Below, one piece after another: positions 10,415 to 18,093 of a DNA stretch of 32,000 nucleotides (within the stretch, counting starts at the first letter, position 1; every line of letters begins with the position of its first letter). The position numbers and the translations under genes were made by a program. This stretch comes from Paenibacillus apiarius (GTDB taxonomy: Bacteria; Bacillota; Bacilli; Paenibacillales; Paenibacillaceae), in NCBI RefSeq assembly GCF_026794045.1, contig NZ_JAMDLW010000016.1. One strand, written 5' to 3'. The notes below the pieces were generated by a model. That model searched no databases, had not been told where the DNA came from, and worked only from the letters and a program-made list of their open reading frames with translations.

Positions 10415-10933
10415 TCAGGCAGGTTTCCCATTCGGAACACTGGATGCCGCGGTCGTTAGCCTAGCGCACAGCGCATAAACGACAAAACCGATGGAGCCTC
10501 CGGTGGAATTCAAAATGAGGTCGTCGACGTCGAATGTTCCGATCGAAAATAAAACTTGTGTGTAATCTAACACGAGACTTACGCCCAAGGAGCTCCAAAA
10601 CGACCCTGCCAACGTCAGTTTGCCGGATTTCGCCAGAACACCGAGGAAAATGCCTAAAGGGACGAAGATCCCAACATTTCCAATCAAGTTCAAAAGGCTG
10701 TGCCCCGACATCGAATCACTCGCCCTGGAAATTTCCTTCAAATGGATCAGATTGTCGGCATGAAGCCGGGCGGCAATACATTCCGGGTTGGTTGAGTTTC
10801 GCATTAGCCGTACCCATAGAAACTCGACGTCTGTCGAGCCAAACTTGAGCACGATGAATTTGAATAATGCGTACATATAGGAGGCAAAAAATGCCCGAAC
10901 AACCCAATTCTTCAACCTGCTTCCGCCGTTCAT
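10415..10933 (-). CDS. VanZ-like family membrane protein (divergent, GC-richer paralogue)
   Basis: GGAGAGGAACGG RBS. NLIGNVGIFVPLGIFLG and DVDDLILNSTGGSIGFVVY fit VanZ-family motifs. It lies 35 nt downstream of vanY on the same strand. Confidence 0.7.
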   Translation of the reverse strand: MNGGSRLKNWVVRAFFASYMYALFKFIVLKFGSTDVEFLWVRLMRNSTNPECIAARLHADNLIHLKEISRASDSMSGHSLLNLIGNVGIFVPLGIFLGVLAKSGKLTLAGSFWSSLGVSLVLDYTQVLFSIGTFDVDDLILNSTGGSIGFVVYALCARLTTAASSVPNGKPA

Positions 10934-10968
10934 CCGTTCCTCTCCGCCCGAGCCTTGTCCGTCGGAAC

Positions 10969-11859
10969 TTAGTCTCGCTTACCAGAATACACTGTCACAA
11001 TCACGCCATCCATATTGTTGCCTGAAATTTCATACTGGCCATTCGCAGGCACAGGGATCGTTGTATTTTGGGAGATAGGATAGTAAAAGATTTTATAGAC
11101 TTGGTGGTCTATTGTAGTCGTAATGGACTTCTGTTCCTTCAAAAAATCCATATATTCTTCTAGAGCGAAATTCTTTTCTTTCATAATCGCGCTGTGAGGG
11201 AAACCAACATAACGGATATGCCATGGTTCATATTGAATTCCAGTAACATCAGTTTTATCCTTTGGATAACGTAATATAAAGCCGTATTTCCAGGCATTTT
11301 CTTTCAGCCACTTTCCTTCAGGTGCCCGATCCATTTTCGTTAAGCTTGATCCTACATCAAGTGATAAGCCTGAATTATGTTCACTATAACCTGCTGGCAA
11401 GGCATAATCAGCCCCCATTTCTTGGTAAAGCACACTTTGCTCATCAAAGTCACGATAGCCACTATTAATAATAAATTGACTAACCCCTTCCTTTACAGCA
11501 TCATTGACCATCTCTGTAAATTTTTGTGCTATTCCTTTTGACAGATAAATATTCGTATCAAGCAACCCATATCCCTTTACCAATTCATTATGTTTAGATA
11601 AATTTACGATATCTGATTTCACACTTTCTTGGCGAACAGGATATTTACTGTTGATTAAGAGCAGATTTCCTTGATAAATCTGTTCTTTTGTAATCGTTTT
11701 TGTTTGGGTACTTCCAGAAGTCCCTCTTTTATCTAAATGATCTTTGTGATTTTGATCATATTTTTGAATTTCTACTTTATCCTGAAAAAACGGTGTTTTA
11801 TTAATGAAGGCAAAACCTAAGCACAATAAAAATAACAATAAAAAACCCCACTTCTTCAT
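10969..11859 (-). CDS. vanY: VanY D,D-carboxypeptidase
   Basis: I trimmed the track ORF to ATG at 11859 (GAAAGGAGGAA RBS), giving MKKWGFLLLFLL. Long matches to Tn1546 VanY as I recall it include QGNLLLINSKYPVRQESVKSDIVNLSKH, INSGYRDFDEQSVLYQEMGA, YALPAGYSEHNSGLSLDVGS and YEPWHIRYVG. Confidence 0.9.
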   Translation of the reverse strand: MKKWGFLLLFLLCLGFAFINKTPFFQDKVEIQKYDQNHKDHLDKRGTSGSTQTKTITKEQIYQGNLLLINSKYPVRQESVKSDIVNLSKHNELVKGYGLLDTNIYLSKGIAQKFTEMVNDAVKEGVSQFIINSGYRDFDEQSVLYQEMGADYALPAGYSEHNSGLSLDVGSSLTKMDRAPEGKWLKENAWKYGFILRYPKDKTDVTGIQYEPWHIRYVGFPHSAIMKEKNFALEEYMDFLKEQKSITTTIDHQVYKIFYYPISQNTTIPVPANGQYEISGNNMDGVIVTVYSGKRD

Positions 11860-12084
11860 TTTCAGTTTCCTCCTTTCTCGAGGCCGGCCACGGACAGAGA
11901 AAGGCTGCGGCTGCAGAGCGCCTCCAGGATATGGCCGGCAAGGGCGGCCTGTTCCTCCCGGTACCCAGCGGAACTGGAGCAATTCATCCGCGAATTGCTG
12001 GCCTGCGGCGAACGTGAGCAGAAGATTGCGATTACCACGACCCGAAGCCTTCTGCGGGCGCTGCGGCAAGATGAGCCTGAAAAA

Positions 12085-12318
12085 CAAGACTGAACGAATA
12101 GATGGGCGGTACTCCACACCGCCTGTTTGCTCCGCAATTTCACAGGCGGTTATTTCGGCCTCGCCGGATTTGCCTATAATGACCGCAATATCGCCCTGCC
12201 TTACATCTTCTTCAATACTATCTACTATATATAAATTCCCTACAAACCAGTTGCAAACGACGGTTTCCGTGCCGAAAGAGATAGCATTATATAGGTTGCC
12301 CGTGCAACGGTTAAAAGC
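12085..12318 (-). pseudogene. Alanine/serine racemase C-terminal relic
   Basis: The frame directly after the vanX stop reads ...FGTETVVCNWFVGNLYIVDSIEEDVRQGDIAVIIGKSGEAEITACEIAEQTGGVEYRPSIRSV. This parallels the Alr C-terminal pattern PIVGRICMD..D....GD.V.LIG.QG.E.IT..E.AE..GTI.YE......RV. It has no start and no N-terminal barrel. Confidence 0.45.
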
Positions 12319-16124: not shown

Positions 16125-16179
16125 AAAAAAGCCCGTTCTTACGGTTTTAAGTCTACCGCGTAAGAACGAGCCGTTTTTT
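16125..16179. terminator. Bidirectional intrinsic-terminator-like hairpin between vanS and vanW
   Basis: A6 - CGTTCTTACG (16134-16143) - 15-nt loop - CGTAAGAACG (16159-16168) - T6. Either strand gives a stem followed by a U-run. Confidence 0.55.
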
Positions 16180-16195
16180 AATATTAAATTGTTAA

Positions 16196-16261
16196 TTTCC
16201 TAAGAAAAAGTAAAGATAACCTTGAGATTTTCCTAAGAAACGATATTCATTTCTTAGGAAC
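16196..16261 (-). promoter_or_regulatory. Three copies of a 12-bp TTTCTTAGGAAA-type motif (candidate VanR~P boxes) plus a candidate -10
   Basis: The plus strand has TTTCCTAAGAAA at 16196-16207 and at 16229-16240 (33 bp apart). An inverted TTTCTTAGGAAC at 16250-16261 overlaps the vanS stop. On the minus strand, TAATAT (16186-16181) lies 17 nt downstream of the proximal box region. Confidence 0.5.
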
Positions 16262-17420
16262 TCCTTTTATCAACCAAGTCTGGCAAGGCCGGAAGCTCTA
16301 CCGTAAACGTCGTGTAGTTATCATTGCTTTCCGCGTAAATCTGCCCGCCATGCTGAACAATGATTTCTTTTGCAATCGCCAATCCAAGTCCCGCGCCGCC
16401 CGTATCGGAAGAACGGGCATCGTCCAGCCTGTAAAACTTTTCAAATATGGCAGCGAGCTTATCTTTGGGGATGCTTCCGGCGTTCTTGAAAACGATGGAC
16501 ACCACATCCCCGGAGAGGCCCGCCGTAATGTCAATGACGCTGTTGTCCTCGCTGTATGCAGCGGCGTTTTTCAAAATGTTGTTAAAGACCCTCGCCAGCT
16601 TATCGGAGTCGCCGGTTACGGTCAAATCCTCGGAAGCATGGATAACCGCCTGTTTTCCATTCGCGGCAAGCTGCGGATAAAATTCATCGGTCATCTGCAC
16701 CAGCATATAGTATAGGTCTATGTGCTTTTTCGTGAGCGTAATCGTTTGGAGGTTATACCGCGTAATCTCAAAAAACTCATCGATTAGCTGTTCGAGGCGA
16801 TACGCTTTGTCCAACGTGATATGCACATACTTTGCCTTTTGCTCTACCGGCATGTCTGGCGCCTCGTCAAGCAGGCTCAGATAACCGATAACGGATGTAA
16901 GGGGCGTTTTAATATCGTGCGCCAAGTACATAACAACGTCATTTTTTCTTTGTTCTGCCAGCTTTGCATCCTGCTCTCGCTTTTCCAGAGTCCGTTTTAA
17001 TGTGTTGAGCTTCTGTTCCATGAACTCCATTTCCGCAGAAAGCTCAATTTGTTTATCTTCGTTCTGAATAAGTATATCAATGCCGGTATTTATCTCGTCA
17101 AAGTATTTTGCAAATTTTGAAAGCATGACGCGGCATAGAATAAGAATACTAATGGCAATCGCCACATAAATAAAGATTTCTATATTGTTCCGTATAGTAT
17201 ACTGATATATTATCATCGCGTCCTGACGCTCTAAGTGATAACTGTTTTCCAAAAAACGTACGATCCACTCCCCAAGTGTCCCCTTGATAAATAAACGCAA
17301 AAACAACACGAATACAACTGCTGCCATAACAATCACAACGATATACTGGTAGAGTTTTCGTTTTAGTTTGGAATAATCGGTTTTTTTATTCTTATTTTTA
17401 TTTTTCAATTTTATAGCCAA
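16254..17420 (-). CDS. vanS: VanS sensor histidine kinase
   Basis: TTG start overlapping the vanR end by 23 nt. Two N-terminal TM segments. H-box MYLAHDIKTPLTS, N-box FNNILKNAAAYS, G-box SSDTGGAGLGLAIAKEI. Collinear with Tn1546 VanS as I recall it. Confidence 0.95.
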   Translation of the reverse strand: MAIKLKNKNKNKKTDYSKLKRKLYQYIVVIVMAAVVFVLFLRLFIKGTLGEWIVRFLENSYHLERQDAMIIYQYTIRNNIEIFIYVAIAISILILCRVMLSKFAKYFDEINTGIDILIQNEDKQIELSAEMEFMEQKLNTLKRTLEKREQDAKLAEQRKNDVVMYLAHDIKTPLTSVIGYLSLLDEAPDMPVEQKAKYVHITLDKAYRLEQLIDEFFEITRYNLQTITLTKKHIDLYYMLVQMTDEFYPQLAANGKQAVIHASEDLTVTGDSDKLARVFNNILKNAAAYSEDNSVIDITAGLSGDVVSIVFKNAGSIPKDKLAAIFEKFYRLDDARSSDTGGAGLGLAIAKEIIVQHGGQIYAESNDNYTTFTVELPALPDLVDKRSS

Positions 17421-18093
17421 CCCCCCATACCGTTTTTATATACTTCGGATTATCAATGGTGTCGTTCATTTTTTCGCGCAGATGCCGGATATGCACGGTG
17501 ATGGTGTTGTTGCTCTTGCTGAAATATTCGTCGCCCCATATCTCATGAAATAACTGCTCGGAGCTAACCACATTCCCCTTGTTTTCACAGAGGATGCGCA
17601 GGATTGAAAACTCGGTGGGAGTGAGGGATAACTGCTTCTCGTTCAGAAAACACTCATGCGTGTTTATATTAATGACAAGGCCGGAGTGGACGATAACATT
17701 TTCGTTCTGCTCCGTTACTCCATTGTATTTTTTGTATCGGCGCAACTGCGCCTTGACCCGCGCAATTAACTCCAGCGGGCGAAAGGGCTTCGTTATATAA
17801 TCGTCCGCGCCGATTGTTAGCCCTGTAATTTTATCTACCTCCGTATCTTTCGCGGTCAGCATGATAATTGGATAGGTGTGCTTGTCCCTTATTTTTTGGC
17901 AGATAGCGAGGCCGCTTGCGCCGGGAAGCATGATGTCCAATATGGCAAGGTCAAGATCGGTCTTGTCTATACATTCCAACGCTTCTTTGGCGGTATAGTA
18001 TTTGAAAACCGTATAATTCTCGTTTTTCAAGTATAGCTCAACCAAATCGGCAATTTCATGTTCATCGTCCACAACAAGTATTTTATCGCTCAT
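17398..18093 (-). CDS. vanR: VanR OmpR-family response regulator
   Basis: ATG at 18093 (AAAGGAGAG RBS 9 nt upstream) gives MSDKILVVDDEHEIADLVELYLKNENYTVFKYYTAKEALECID..., 231 aa. It is nearly collinear with Tn1546 VanR. The TTG at 18102 in the track abuts the SD sequence. Confidence 0.95.
   Translation of the reverse strand: MSDKILVVDDEHEIADLVELYLKNENYTVFKYYTAKEALECIDKTDLDLAILDIMLPGASGLAICQKIRDKHTYPIIMLTAKDTEVDKITGLTIGADDYITKPFRPLELIARVKAQLRRYKKYNGVTEQNENVIVHSGLVININTHECFLNEKQLSLTPTEFSILRILCENKGNVVSSEQLFHEIWGDEYFSKSNNTITVHIRHLREKMNDTIDNPKYIKTVWGVGYKIEK

Follow-up and report, generated by a model that had tools for sequence, protein, structure and literature searches.

Positions 10415–18093 of the window (the whole 32,000-nt stretch of DNA analyzed here) very probably make up a vanA-PA-type operon for glycopeptide resistance on the Paenibacillus apiarius chromosome, with vanW located ahead of vanHAX (Table 1). 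P. apiarius is a soil and bee-associated bacterium. The operon is already known: a first description dates from 2005, and genome surveys published in 2022 and 2024 cover it too. Guardabassi and colleagues (Antimicrob Agents Chemother 2005, 49:4227) reportedly noted that vanA-PA shares with vanB operons a vanW lying 5′ of vanHAX, yet is closer in sequence to vanA operons. The present analysis directly established which genes are present, their order and junctions, the limits of homology, and the species; the match to the original vanA-PA operon rests on three proteins of strain PA-B2B (GenBank DQ018711), namely the ligase, VanH, and VanZ, with sequences obtained through a supplement and a protein cluster, on the locus-tag order of strain MW-14, and on the 2005 abstract.

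Table 1. Features of the van locus, in order along the minus strand (bits and cut-offs from profile searches).
Feature	Position	Strand	Description
vanR, response regulator	17398–18093	-	231 aa, ATG start; NCBIfam VanR-A 534 bits (cut-off 500)
vanS, sensor histidine kinase	16254–17420	-	388 aa, TTG start; NCBIfam HK_VanS 443 bits (cut-off 400)
vanS–vanW intergenic regulatory block	16098–16253	-	Homolog of the 5′ portion of the Tn1546 vanS–vanH (PvanH) spacer
vanW	15232–16062	-	ORF from GTG 16047 (271 aa); NCBI P. apiarius model from ATA 16062 (276 aa)
vanW–vanH spacer	14926–15231	-	306 nt; from alignments
vanH, D-lactate dehydrogenase	13957–14925	-	322 aa; NCBIfam vanH_gen 607 bits (cut-off 540)
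D-Ala-D-Lac ligase, VanA-PA type	12933–13964	-	343 aa, TTG start; NCBIfam D_ala_D_lac 681 bits (cut-off 550)
vanX, D-Ala-D-Ala dipeptidase	12319–12927	-	202 aa; NCBIfam VanX 373 bits (cut-off 320)
vanY, D,D-carboxypeptidase	10969–11859	-	296 aa, MKKWGF start; NCBIfam VanY-A/F/M 585 bits (cut-off 425); Pfam VanY
vanZ, VanZ-Pt type	10415–10933	-	172 aa; NCBIfam vanZ-Pt 270 bits (cut-off 260)
Second VanZ-family gene	9680–10156	-	158 aa; Pfam VanZ 74 bits; outside the limits first proposed

The eight intact minus-strand ORFs that an earlier sequence-only reading had placed here (vanR, vanS, vanW, vanH, the D-Ala-D-Lac ligase, vanX, vanY, and vanZ) are all present at 10415–18093, and in NCBIfam profile searches all match the expected families over approximately the full model length, above the curated cut-offs. 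The ligase falls below the allele-specific cut-offs for VanA (719 vs. 775) and VanM (712 vs. 760). The start of vanY is most likely at 11859, rather than at the GTG far upstream where the mechanical ORF begins, and a vanY gene of equal length is called on contig L023. Although the eight genes stand, the lower limit of the cluster needs to be moved: the second VanZ-family gene, whose product is weakly VanZ-A-like (82 bits, 37% identity), has 92–95% identical copies adjoining vanY/vanZ in Pseudalkalibacillus salsuginis and P. melissococcoides, and the cluster therefore extends past 10415. Compared with the PA-B2B and MW-14 loci, the source strain has an extra low-GC insert, carrying an ant(9) gene, beside the vanZ genes.

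The host backbone had been judged Paenibacillus-like, rightly so, and the species is P. apiarius: the ligase, VanH, VanZ, and, from the backbone, a SUFU-domain protein each match an NCBI P. apiarius protein exactly, and the clustered relatives of the SUFU-domain protein that carry a source name are all from P. apiarius. In addition, a public contig of 14.2 kb is 100% identical to positions 5232–19420 of the window.

The regulatory pair, HAX core, and vanY are Tn1546-like, as first proposed, with amino-acid identities of 94% (VanR), 88% (VanS, to VanS-A), 78% (VanH), 85% (ligase, to VanA), 85% (VanX, to VanX-A), and 78% (VanY, to VanY-A). The junctions, compared base by base with those of Tn1546 on pWZ1668, bear out the fine structure first proposed, which the two have in common: the vanR/vanS overlap of 23 nt (17398–17420) with its TTG vanS start, the vanH/ligase overlap of 8 nt (13957–13964), and the 5-nt spacer between the ligase stop and the vanX ATG, which reads 'TGATAAGCATG' in both. 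The ligase itself starts with TTG in the window and with ATG in Tn1546. Upstream of vanR, alignment detects no homology to PvanR of Tn1546, so autoregulation may differ.

The region around vanW retains the two ends of the Tn1546 vanS–vanH spacer. This spacer aligns solely to 16098–16253 (156 nt, ~90% identical, with homology ending at 16098) and to 14932–14984, and thus equals the vanS–vanW spacer of the window followed directly by the final ~50 nt ahead of vanH, which places a PvanH-homologous block upstream of vanW. The block contains two exact copies of TTCTTAGGAAA (16229–16239 and 16196–16206; repeat family D2). Between these repeats and vanW lies a strong hairpin of 13–14 bp followed by a T-run (16131–16173; predicted energy −21.3 kcal/mol), and the repeats are consequently only candidates for VanR binding. 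The −35/−10 region departs from Tn1546 exactly at the homology break, and no convincing sigma-70 −10 element with proper spacing was found upstream of vanW. In the vanW–vanH spacer, only the last ~50 nt are common to Tn1546, as a vanH leader with a ribosome-binding site; positions 15005–15239 are specific to the P. apiarius/B9 sub-lineage, the ORFs are all short and broken, and no terminator-like site was found on the minus strand between vanW and vanH. The suggestion that the inducible-promoter region surrounds vanW needs to be narrowed: vanW lies downstream of the conserved, putative promoter block rather than within it.

The product of 15232–16047 groups with VanW proteins, as anticipated: it scores 442.5 bits against the generic NCBIfam VanW equivalog (cut-off 365) and 498 against the VanW-B-specific model, below the cut-off of the latter (610). 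It is a bare VanW domain (Pfam VanW, residues 65–198), and no hydrophobic segment, signal peptide, or transmembrane segment was found in it. Eleven P. apiarius contigs carry an annotated VanW of the same sequence (100% identity). The position of the conserved start is occupied by ATA in the window, in two related contigs (L022 and L023), in Brevibacillus laterosporus B9, and in P. zanthoxyli, whereas ATG is kept in the other eight intact homologs examined and in the internally deleted copy of B. chungangensis. The first canonical start is GTG 16047, and a Shine–Dalgarno-like AAGGCAGGTG lies ahead of the gene at 16068–16077. Work from 2024 established that some members of the VanW-domain family are L,D-transpeptidases (PMC11348318); the missing export signal and the lost ATG argue against a working extracellular transpeptidase here.

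Known systems leave no novelty in the vanRS-W-HAX-Y-Z order, which had been put forward as new, since MW-14 and B9 share it; nor is the sequence new, given a ligase 98.8% and 99.4% identical to those of PA-B2B and MW-14, respectively, and 96% nucleotide identity to B9. The two P. apiarius strains differ from the window by a few amino-acid substitutions (VanH, 97.8% and 98.1%; PA-B2B VanZ, AAY52015.1, 95%). In the related strain L022, a 117-aa ORF sits in the vanX–vanY spacer, of which ~224 nt are missing from the window; the locus-tag order of MW-14 is vanR, vanS, vanW, vanH, vanA, vanX, one gene, vanY, vanZ, and that of B. laterosporus SAM19 is R-S-W-H-A-X-…-Y-Z (PMC9689679 supplement). B. 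laterosporus B9 (CP011076, 'plasmid unnamed2') has the order vanR-S-W-H-A-X-Y and is 96.7% identical over 12053–18206 (VanR, 100%, as in P. zanthoxyli; VanS, VanH, and ligase, 98%), but its VanX and VanY are only 89% and 77% identical, and a 1-nt deletion (window position 15978) shifts the reading frame of its vanW, which explains the listing of the cluster as vanRSHAXYZ (PMC9689679).

The vanRSWHAX order has been published for three Paenibacillus spp. and P. piri (PMC9689679; PMC11273654); PMC9689679 also reports murG on the downstream side of the van loci. P. piri MS74 has the same regulatory block 5′ of vanW (vanRS-W, 94–95% nucleotide identity; VanW, 94%), but keeps the vanW ATG and has a shorter, unrelated vanW–vanH spacer and less similar HAX genes (89%); no vanY or vanZ match is present within the 20.8-kb locus compared. 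Tn1546 of enterococci shares the R-S-…-H-A-X-Y-Z order, the junction architecture, the 156-nt block, and the vanH leader, but lacks vanW and any counterpart of 14985–16097, and its VanZ is only 36–37% identical. In Tn1549-type vanB clusters, examined in Angelakisella massiliensis and Enterocloster lavalensis, vanW lies directly 5′ of vanH–ligase–vanX, as in the window; however, the two genes abut rather than being 306 nt apart, vanY-B is upstream of vanW, and the low identity of VanR (35%) and VanS (24%) indicates a different two-component system.

Sequence comparison indicates that vanW is an accessory gene co-inherited with vanHAX, with no recent graft from a vanB element. It lies directly 5′ of vanH in 14 of 14 clusters, in which VanW identity drops in step with ligase identity, and the HAX genes of Tn1546 nest among vanW-bearing clusters. 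A recent hybrid, formed when a Tn1546-like vanA operon received vanW from a Tn1549-like vanB element, is largely refuted and most improbable. The textbook association of vanW with vanB and vanG clusters (PMC8541618) would fit such an insertion, and the cluster is mosaic, with vanRS-W nearest to P. piri (94–95% nucleotide identity) and HAX nearest to B9, P. zanthoxyli, and B. chungangensis (95–97%). However, the distance of VanW from its vanB-cluster homologs (76–77% identity) approximates that of the ligase from VanB (74–75%), closer VanW proteins (83–97%) occupy the same position in other Paenibacillaceae, neither a transposase nor inverted repeats nor a jump in composition was found on the flanks of vanW, and the vanY gene, which lies downstream, belongs to the A/F/M family, unlike the upstream B type of vanB clusters. 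By contrast, the idea of an ancestral or intermediate form gains support, in that the Tn1546 spacer resembles the window minus vanW and Tn1546 HAX nests as described. Mobility of the whole segment, as part of a Tn1546-like (Tn3-family) or composite IS256 transposon poised for transfer, is also very unlikely. An IS256-family element with 26-nt imperfect inverted repeats (19393–20749) does lie 1.3 kb upstream of vanR, and in MW-14 three locus tags separate vanR from an IS256-family transposase; but the window has a single IS256 copy without a clean 8-bp target duplication, Tn1546 homology ends at the vanR start codon and within vanY, no Tn3-family transposase, resolvase, or terminal-repeat match was found, and the genes flanking the segment are ordinary chromosomal ones, encoding solute-binding proteins, an MFS transporter, a monooxygenase, and the P. 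apiarius SUFU-domain protein.

Alternatively, vanW may be a decaying passenger that is transcribed from the inducible promoter, is poorly translated or untranslated because ATA has replaced its ATG, and has no role in resistance, as a step toward the vanW-less layout of Tn1546; we hold this tentatively, at somewhat below an even chance. Besides the ATG-to-ATA change, the frameshift in B9, and the lack of a signal peptide or transmembrane segment, vanW has deletions of 477 nt in P. zanthoxyli, 470 nt in B. chungangensis, and 498 nt in A. shizuokensis, and is almost wholly lost in P. melissococcoides; experimental evidence for a contribution of VanW to vancomycin resistance is lacking, according to PMC11348318. 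Against decay, the 271-codon frame is uninterrupted, with the same sequence on at least 9–11 P. apiarius contigs, Cys123, His146, and Asp163 are conserved, and dN/dS is 0.11–0.23, although this value mostly reflects history before the ATA change. Some translation is also conceivable, because ATA can initiate at low efficiency and, five codons 3′ of it, there is a GTG preceded by a weak AGGTAG. In the accessible literature, we found no description of the PvanH-homologous block upstream of vanW, the ancestral ATG-to-ATA change in the P. apiarius locus, the independent frameshift or deletion of vanW in five close relatives together with its absence from Tn1546 despite the nesting of the Tn1546 HAX genes within vanW-bearing clusters, or the second vanZ-family gene just beyond the limits first proposed.

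The biochemistry of VanRS, HAX, and VanY is established knowledge. In the proposed mechanism, VanS would sense the glycopeptide and phosphorylate VanR, and VanR-P would activate a putative promoter within 16098–16253. Transcription would then pass through vanW, vanH, the ligase gene, and vanX, with presumed co-transcription of vanW and vanH, and would probably continue into vanY and vanZ. VanH would supply D-lactate, the ligase would form D-Ala-D-Lac, VanX would destroy D-Ala-D-Ala, and VanY would trim leftover pentapeptide, so that wall precursors would end in D-Lac and bind vancomycin poorly. Any role of VanW is one that we infer: because ATA replaces the original ATG, its contribution in the P. 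apiarius lineage is probably small.

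The cluster comprises eight consecutive minus-strand open reading frames (18093–10415), as the sequence-only reading had described. In an NCBIfam profile scan each of the eight matches its expected family above the curated cut-off, and the matches cover essentially the whole model in every case (see table). The ligase, VanH, and VanX each exceed their family cut-offs, as in D-Ala-D-Lac (vanHAX-type) clusters, and a VanR/VanS two-component regulator adjoins the HAX genes. In this family, the biochemistry of HAX/Y and control by VanRS are established. The product of 15232–16047, proposed earlier to be VanW, is borne out as such by its score with the generic model NF033128 and by the position of its gene directly upstream of vanH. 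The vanY gene most likely starts at 11859 and encodes 296 aa. A second VanZ-family gene (9680–10156, minus strand; 158 aa; Pfam VanZ) shares only 37% identity with VanZ-A and has 92–95% identical copies next to the vanY/vanZ genes of Pseudalkalibacillus salsuginis (L004) and P. melissococcoides (L021). This gene probably belongs to the van accessory set; because it is kept beside vanY/vanZ in these two related clusters, the cluster would reach past 10415, its lower boundary as first drawn. The vanX–vanY spacer (at 11876) is ~224 nt shorter in the window than in L022, a contig of a related strain (14172–14395), where a 117-aa ORF is called. A "non-correlated gene" between vanX and vanY has been noted (PMC9689679), and the L022 ORF is probably this gene, corresponding to RS26460 of P. 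apiarius MW-14.

Genes of the van cluster, the neighboring insertion element, and vanW lesions in related clusters (coordinates of the window; scores in bits)
Feature	Coordinates	Strand	Details
VanR-A		minus	NCBIfam 534, cut-off 500
VanS (HK_VanS)		minus	NCBIfam 443, cut-off 400
VanW generic equivalog (NF033128)	15232–16047	minus	442.5, cut-off 365; residues 1–267 of 271
VanH		minus	NCBIfam 607, cut-off 540
D-Ala-D-Lac ligase		minus	NCBIfam 681, cut-off 550
VanX		minus	NCBIfam 373, cut-off 320
VanY, A/F/M family		minus	NCBIfam 585, cut-off 425
VanZ-Pt		minus	NCBIfam 270, cut-off 260
IS256-family element	19393–20749		transposase 406 aa, 442, cut-off 150; 26-nt imperfect terminal inverted repeats
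B. laterosporus B9 vanW	15978		1-nt frameshift
P. zanthoxyli vanW	15461–15937		in-frame 477-nt deletion
B. chungangensis vanW	15390–15859		470-nt deletion
A. shizuokensis vanW	15610–16107		498-nt deletion
P. melissococcoides vanW			near-total loss plus insertion

The Tn1546-like fine structure described in the sequence-only reading is present in the window, as judged against the Tn1546 copy of pWZ1668 (L002). The 23-nt vanR/vanS overlap and the TTG start of vanS are the same in both, and the 8-nt vanH/ligase overlap is shared, whereas the ligase starts with TTG in the window and with ATG in Tn1546. From the ligase stop to the vanX ATG, both read TGATAAGCATG, with a spacer of 5 nt. At the amino-acid level, Tn1546 and the window share 94% identity in VanR, 88% in VanS, 78% in VanH, 85% in the ligase, 85% in VanX, 78% in VanY, and 36% in VanZ. 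For the vanB clusters of Angelakisella massiliensis and Enterocloster lavalensis, the corresponding values are 76–77% in VanW, 67% in VanH, 74–75% in the ligase, and 79% in VanX, but only 35% in VanR and 24% in VanS. The window has its A/F/M-family vanY downstream, whereas vanY-B lies upstream of vanW in the vanB clusters. The ligase falls below the allele-specific VanA cut-off (719 bits vs. 775), the VanB model expected of a vanB-type cluster gives 614 bits against a cut-off of 750, and VanW falls below the VanW-B-specific cut-off (498 bits vs. 610). Judged by these identities, the cluster is vanA-like in everything except the presence of vanW.

By exact-sequence look-up, four products of the window (the ligase, VanH, VanZ, and a SUFU-domain protein encoded in the flank) are NCBI Paenibacillus apiarius proteins, and 11 P. 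apiarius contigs have an annotated VanW that matches the one here at all 271 residues. Window 5232–19420 also occurs, with 100% identity, in a public assembly contig of 34 kb, which ends ~28 nt into the left end of the IS256-family element. The guess of a Paenibacillus backbone was therefore right, and the genes flanking the cluster are ordinary chromosomal ones. According to Guardabassi et al. in 2005, vanA-PA of P. apiarius reportedly resembles vanB operons in having vanW upstream of vanHAX, is said to be nearer to vanA in sequence, and apparently forms a species-specific operon; the same authors are said to have found inducible resistance with D-Lac-ending precursors in strain PA-B2B. The window ligase and VanH are 98.8 and 97.8% identical to those of PA-B2B, and 99.4 and 98.1% identical to those of MW-14 (sequences from the supplement of PMC9689679); PA-B2B VanZ (AAY52015.1) is 95% identical to the window VanZ. 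By these values, the window ligase is the VanA-Pa allele. The MW-14 locus tags run vanR RS26490, vanS RS26485, VanW RS26480, vanH RS26475, vanA RS26470, vanX RS26465, (RS26460), VanY RS26455, and VanZ RS26450, with an IS256-family transposase at RS26505 (PMC9689679), such that both gene order and neighboring IS family equal those of the window. The order R-S-W-H-A-X-...-Y-Z of MW-14 is also that of B. laterosporus SAM19 (PMC9689679), and B. laterosporus B9 has the arrangement of the window at 96–97% nucleotide identity. In addition, vanRSWHAX has been reported for three Paenibacillus species (PMC9689679) and for P. piri (PMC11273654).

The claim that the arrangement is new thus fails, as an operon of the same order and near-identical sequence has been described: the vanW-containing vanA-type operon of P. 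apiarius is already known, having been reported in 2005 and listed again in recent genome surveys. Besides the 2022 and 2024 surveys, no open papers quoting DQ018711 (PA-B2B) or the 2005 description of vanW were found. The operon formulas in these surveys disagree with the sequences. The 2022 text labels the group that includes P. apiarius "vanRSZYWHAX" and lists B9 as vanRSHAXYZ (PMC9689679), and the 2024 paper lists P. apiarius as vanRSHAXYZ (PMC11273654), whereas the P. apiarius locus tags give R-S-W-H-A-X-Y-Z. The B9 listing overlooks a frameshifted vanW, and P. zanthoxyli is listed as vanRSHAX despite a retained, deleted vanW. Such untidy formulas in the open literature may explain why the arrangement can look novel.

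Two accounts of how vanW and the cluster came to their present place are rejected on identity distances and absent mobile features. That vanW was recently grafted from a vanB element into a vanA operon is very unlikely: as great a distance separates VanW from VanW-B as separates the ligase from VanB, other Paenibacillaceae have closer VanW proteins at the same position, and nothing mobile flanks vanW. That the cluster is a Tn1546-like or a composite IS256 transposon is not supported either. BLAST against the pWZ1668 Tn1546 finds homology only at 10989–18101, excepting 14985–16097, with no match in the window to the transposase, resolvase, or ends of Tn1546; the flanks are chromosomal, a Tn3-type transposase or resolvase is absent, and the single IS copy has 8-bp flanks (GGACTAGA and CCACAAGA) that form no clean target duplication. 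Megablast of the left flank (1–6900) against plasmids gives no match, and the only other matches of the flanks are to an ant(9) gene and, at ~81%, to a gene block of the Bacillus cereus group; hence, the window does not correspond to a known plasmid. Beyond the IS256-family element, the sequence has no match to L022, which suggests an IS-associated rearrangement at this site, and public short-read contigs break there.

The surroundings of the cluster have further features. A low-GC stretch at ~6050–10340 (32–38% vs. ~45% around it) contains an ANT(9)-family aminoglycoside nucleotidyltransferase gene (7293–8096, plus strand; 388 bits vs. a cut-off of 340), a 232-aa gene (8741–9439), and the second vanZ. 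The ant(9) gene is 85% identical in nucleotide sequence to ant(9)-Ia on enterococcal, staphylococcal, and Listeria plasmids. It is bracketed by 25-nt inverted repeats (7092–7116 and 8308–8332; 88% complementary) that delimit a 1.24 kb unit, and is preceded by three overlapping AT-rich direct repeats spaced by ~20 nt (7099–7176); the arrangement may represent a small mobile cassette or else a leader with a regulatory role. Window 6848–10338 has no counterpart in L022; there, vanZ is followed by the SUFU gene at a distance of ~1.1 kb, in which no gene is called. On the other side of the cluster, an alpha/beta-hydrolase (Abhydrolase_3) gene (20949–22012, minus strand) is split into two ORFs of 187 and 167 aa that overlap by 4 nt and match profile positions 1–66 and 71–208, and is probably a frameshifted pseudogene.

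The control region links the window to Tn1546 on both sides of vanW. In Tn1546, vanS is followed by the PvanH spacer and then by vanH, whereas in the window a 1,113-nt segment carrying vanW splits this spacer. The first ~156 nt of the Tn1546 spacer align to window 16253–16098 with about 90% identity and the last ~50 nt align to 14984–14932; window 14985–16097, absent from Tn1546, consists of vanW plus about 250 nt. The conserved block upstream of vanW contains two exact TTCTTAGGAAA repeats 33 nt apart and a 13–14-bp hairpin with a T-run (-21.3 kcal/mol), the arms of which carry GTAAGAAC-type motifs. In Tn1546, the homolog of 16098–16253 is the VanR-P-dependent PvanH region, reportedly defined as such by Arthur et al. 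in 1992 and Holman et al. in 1994. In P. apiarius this PvanH-homologous block is located upstream of vanW, and no minus-strand terminator-like site was found in the vanW–vanH interval; a single inducible transcript would run over vanW, vanH, the ligase gene, and vanX, and probably on into vanY and vanZ. A sigma-70 promoter scan upstream of vanW and in the vanW–vanH spacer gave no convincing minus-strand site and no well-spaced -10, and performed no better than shuffles (23 sites vs. 21 expected). Because no published PvanH start or VanR footprint was found in open reviews, we infer the details of the promoter.

Upstream of vanR, the region is non-homologous to Tn1546 PvanR and contains no Tn1546-like VanR box within 3 mismatches. 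A reading at ~18190–18255 (minus strand), LSKLTLQELESHLWKSADILRG*, resembles by eye an N-terminal stub of HsdM, the type I restriction-modification methylase. This putative stub is preceded by a good promoter-like TTGACA-16-TACATT (18272–18245), such that this region, not a Tn1546-like PvanR, lies before vanR. In the lineage-specific part of the vanW–vanH spacer (14994–15150, plus strand), two short overlapping opposite-strand ORFs of 28 and 41 aa have the look of a single small gene disrupted by a frameshift. In Pseudalkalibacillus salsuginis (L004, 16080–16367), the vanS 3′ end and promoter block (window 16039–16330) are duplicated ~170 nt upstream of vanY, which would provide vanY/vanZ with a VanR-controlled region of their own.

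VanW consists of the VanW domain alone (Pfam, residues 65–198), with no PG4 or G5 wall-binding domains. Cys123 (GGGLCQ), His146, and Asp163 (GVDAT) are conserved in all 14 aligned homologs spanning the region. In 2024, L,D-transpeptidase activity that relies on a Cys-His-Asp triad was shown for the VanW domains of Ldt4 and Ldt5 from C. difficile; the authors proposed that it could explain a role in vancomycin resistance, while pointing out that such a role had yet to be demonstrated (PMC11348318). From their motifs, the three window residues would correspond to this triad, and VanW is a candidate L,D-transpeptidase. In the same paper, four of the seven foreign VanW proteins tested lacked activity, E. 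faecalis VanW being among the seven (PMC11348318). A PDB sequence search with VanW returned no solved relative.

Whether vanW is a working accessory enzyme or a decaying passenger in this operon is bound up with these features and with its start codon. The start is ATG preceded by AAGG(C)AGGTG in all other homologs examined, whereas it is ATA in the window (16047–16077, minus strand), as in L022, the contig L023, B. laterosporus B9, and P. zanthoxyli; ATG is found in nine other clusters, namely eight intact homologs and the internally deleted B. chungangensis copy. The NCBI P. apiarius VanW model starts at this ATA (276 aa), and a canonical start codon is first reached five codons further on, at a GTG. 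Signs of an extracytoplasmic location, such as the transmembrane helix or lipoprotein signal of Ldt4/Ldt5, were sought, and no signal peptide, transmembrane segment, or N-terminal hydrophobic segment was found in VanW, the maximum 19-residue Kyte–Doolittle hydropathy (1.06) lying inside the catalytic motif. The loss of the ancestral ATG and the lack of both an export signal and a wall-binding domain favor decay, whereas the conserved Cys123, His146, and Asp163 and a dN/dS of 0.11–0.23 against intact homologs speak for function. Decay is a serious possibility, to which we give somewhat less than even weight.

Among clusters with vanRS and HAX 88–99% nucleotide-identical to the window, vanW is repeatedly damaged (see table). 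Together with the start change from ATG to ATA seen in P. apiarius, B9, and P. zanthoxyli and with the complete loss of the gene from Tn1546, the frameshift and the four deletions amount to at least six separate vanW lesions. In a neighbor-joining tree of concatenated VanH–ligase–VanX, Tn1546 is sister to the P. apiarius/B. laterosporus group (69% bootstrap) and lies inside a set of clusters in each of which vanW is present whole or as a remnant, the outgroup being vanB clusters that carry vanW. The tree is neighbor-joining only, and its loci were retrieved by VanW similarity, which makes vanW prevalent among them by construction; therefore, only the nesting of Tn1546 and the two-sided spacer homology carry weight. 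These two observations support the "ancestral form" part of the sequence-only reading, which was right in substance but not on the novelty of the arrangement. The parsimonious reading would be that vanW-HAX is the older arrangement, from which Tn1546 descended by deletion, and this agrees with the general conclusion that accessory genes were assembled in Bacillales (PMC11273654). The fuller proposal, that the whole vanA lineage descends from a vanW-bearing ancestor and that the enterococcal Tn1546 layout arose from it by deletion, with the PvanH spacer as a scar and vanW lost repeatedly, is one that we hold to be slightly on the probable side.

If vanW is ancestral in this way, what is now the PvanH block of Tn1546 began as the promoter region of vanW, the vanS–vanH spacer of Tn1546 is the scar of a ~1.1 kb loss (window 14985–16097), and the repeated loss of vanW in the lineage starts with the ATG-to-ATA change in P. 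apiarius. With VanRS-A-type regulation and vanY/vanZ in place, VanW would then, to judge from the repeated losses, be dispensable or costly. The deletion scar, if real, would be an incremental evolutionary point, and as a discovery the operon, known since 2005, matters little. The value of the cluster is as a well-preserved reference point for the origin of the clinical vanA operon in soil Paenibacillaceae: comparison with the window tells, to the base, which portions of the Tn1546 regulatory spacer are older than the vanW loss, and the natural series of vanW genes (intact, start-mutated, frameshifted, partly deleted, and absent) serves the question of what VanW does and why it is lost.
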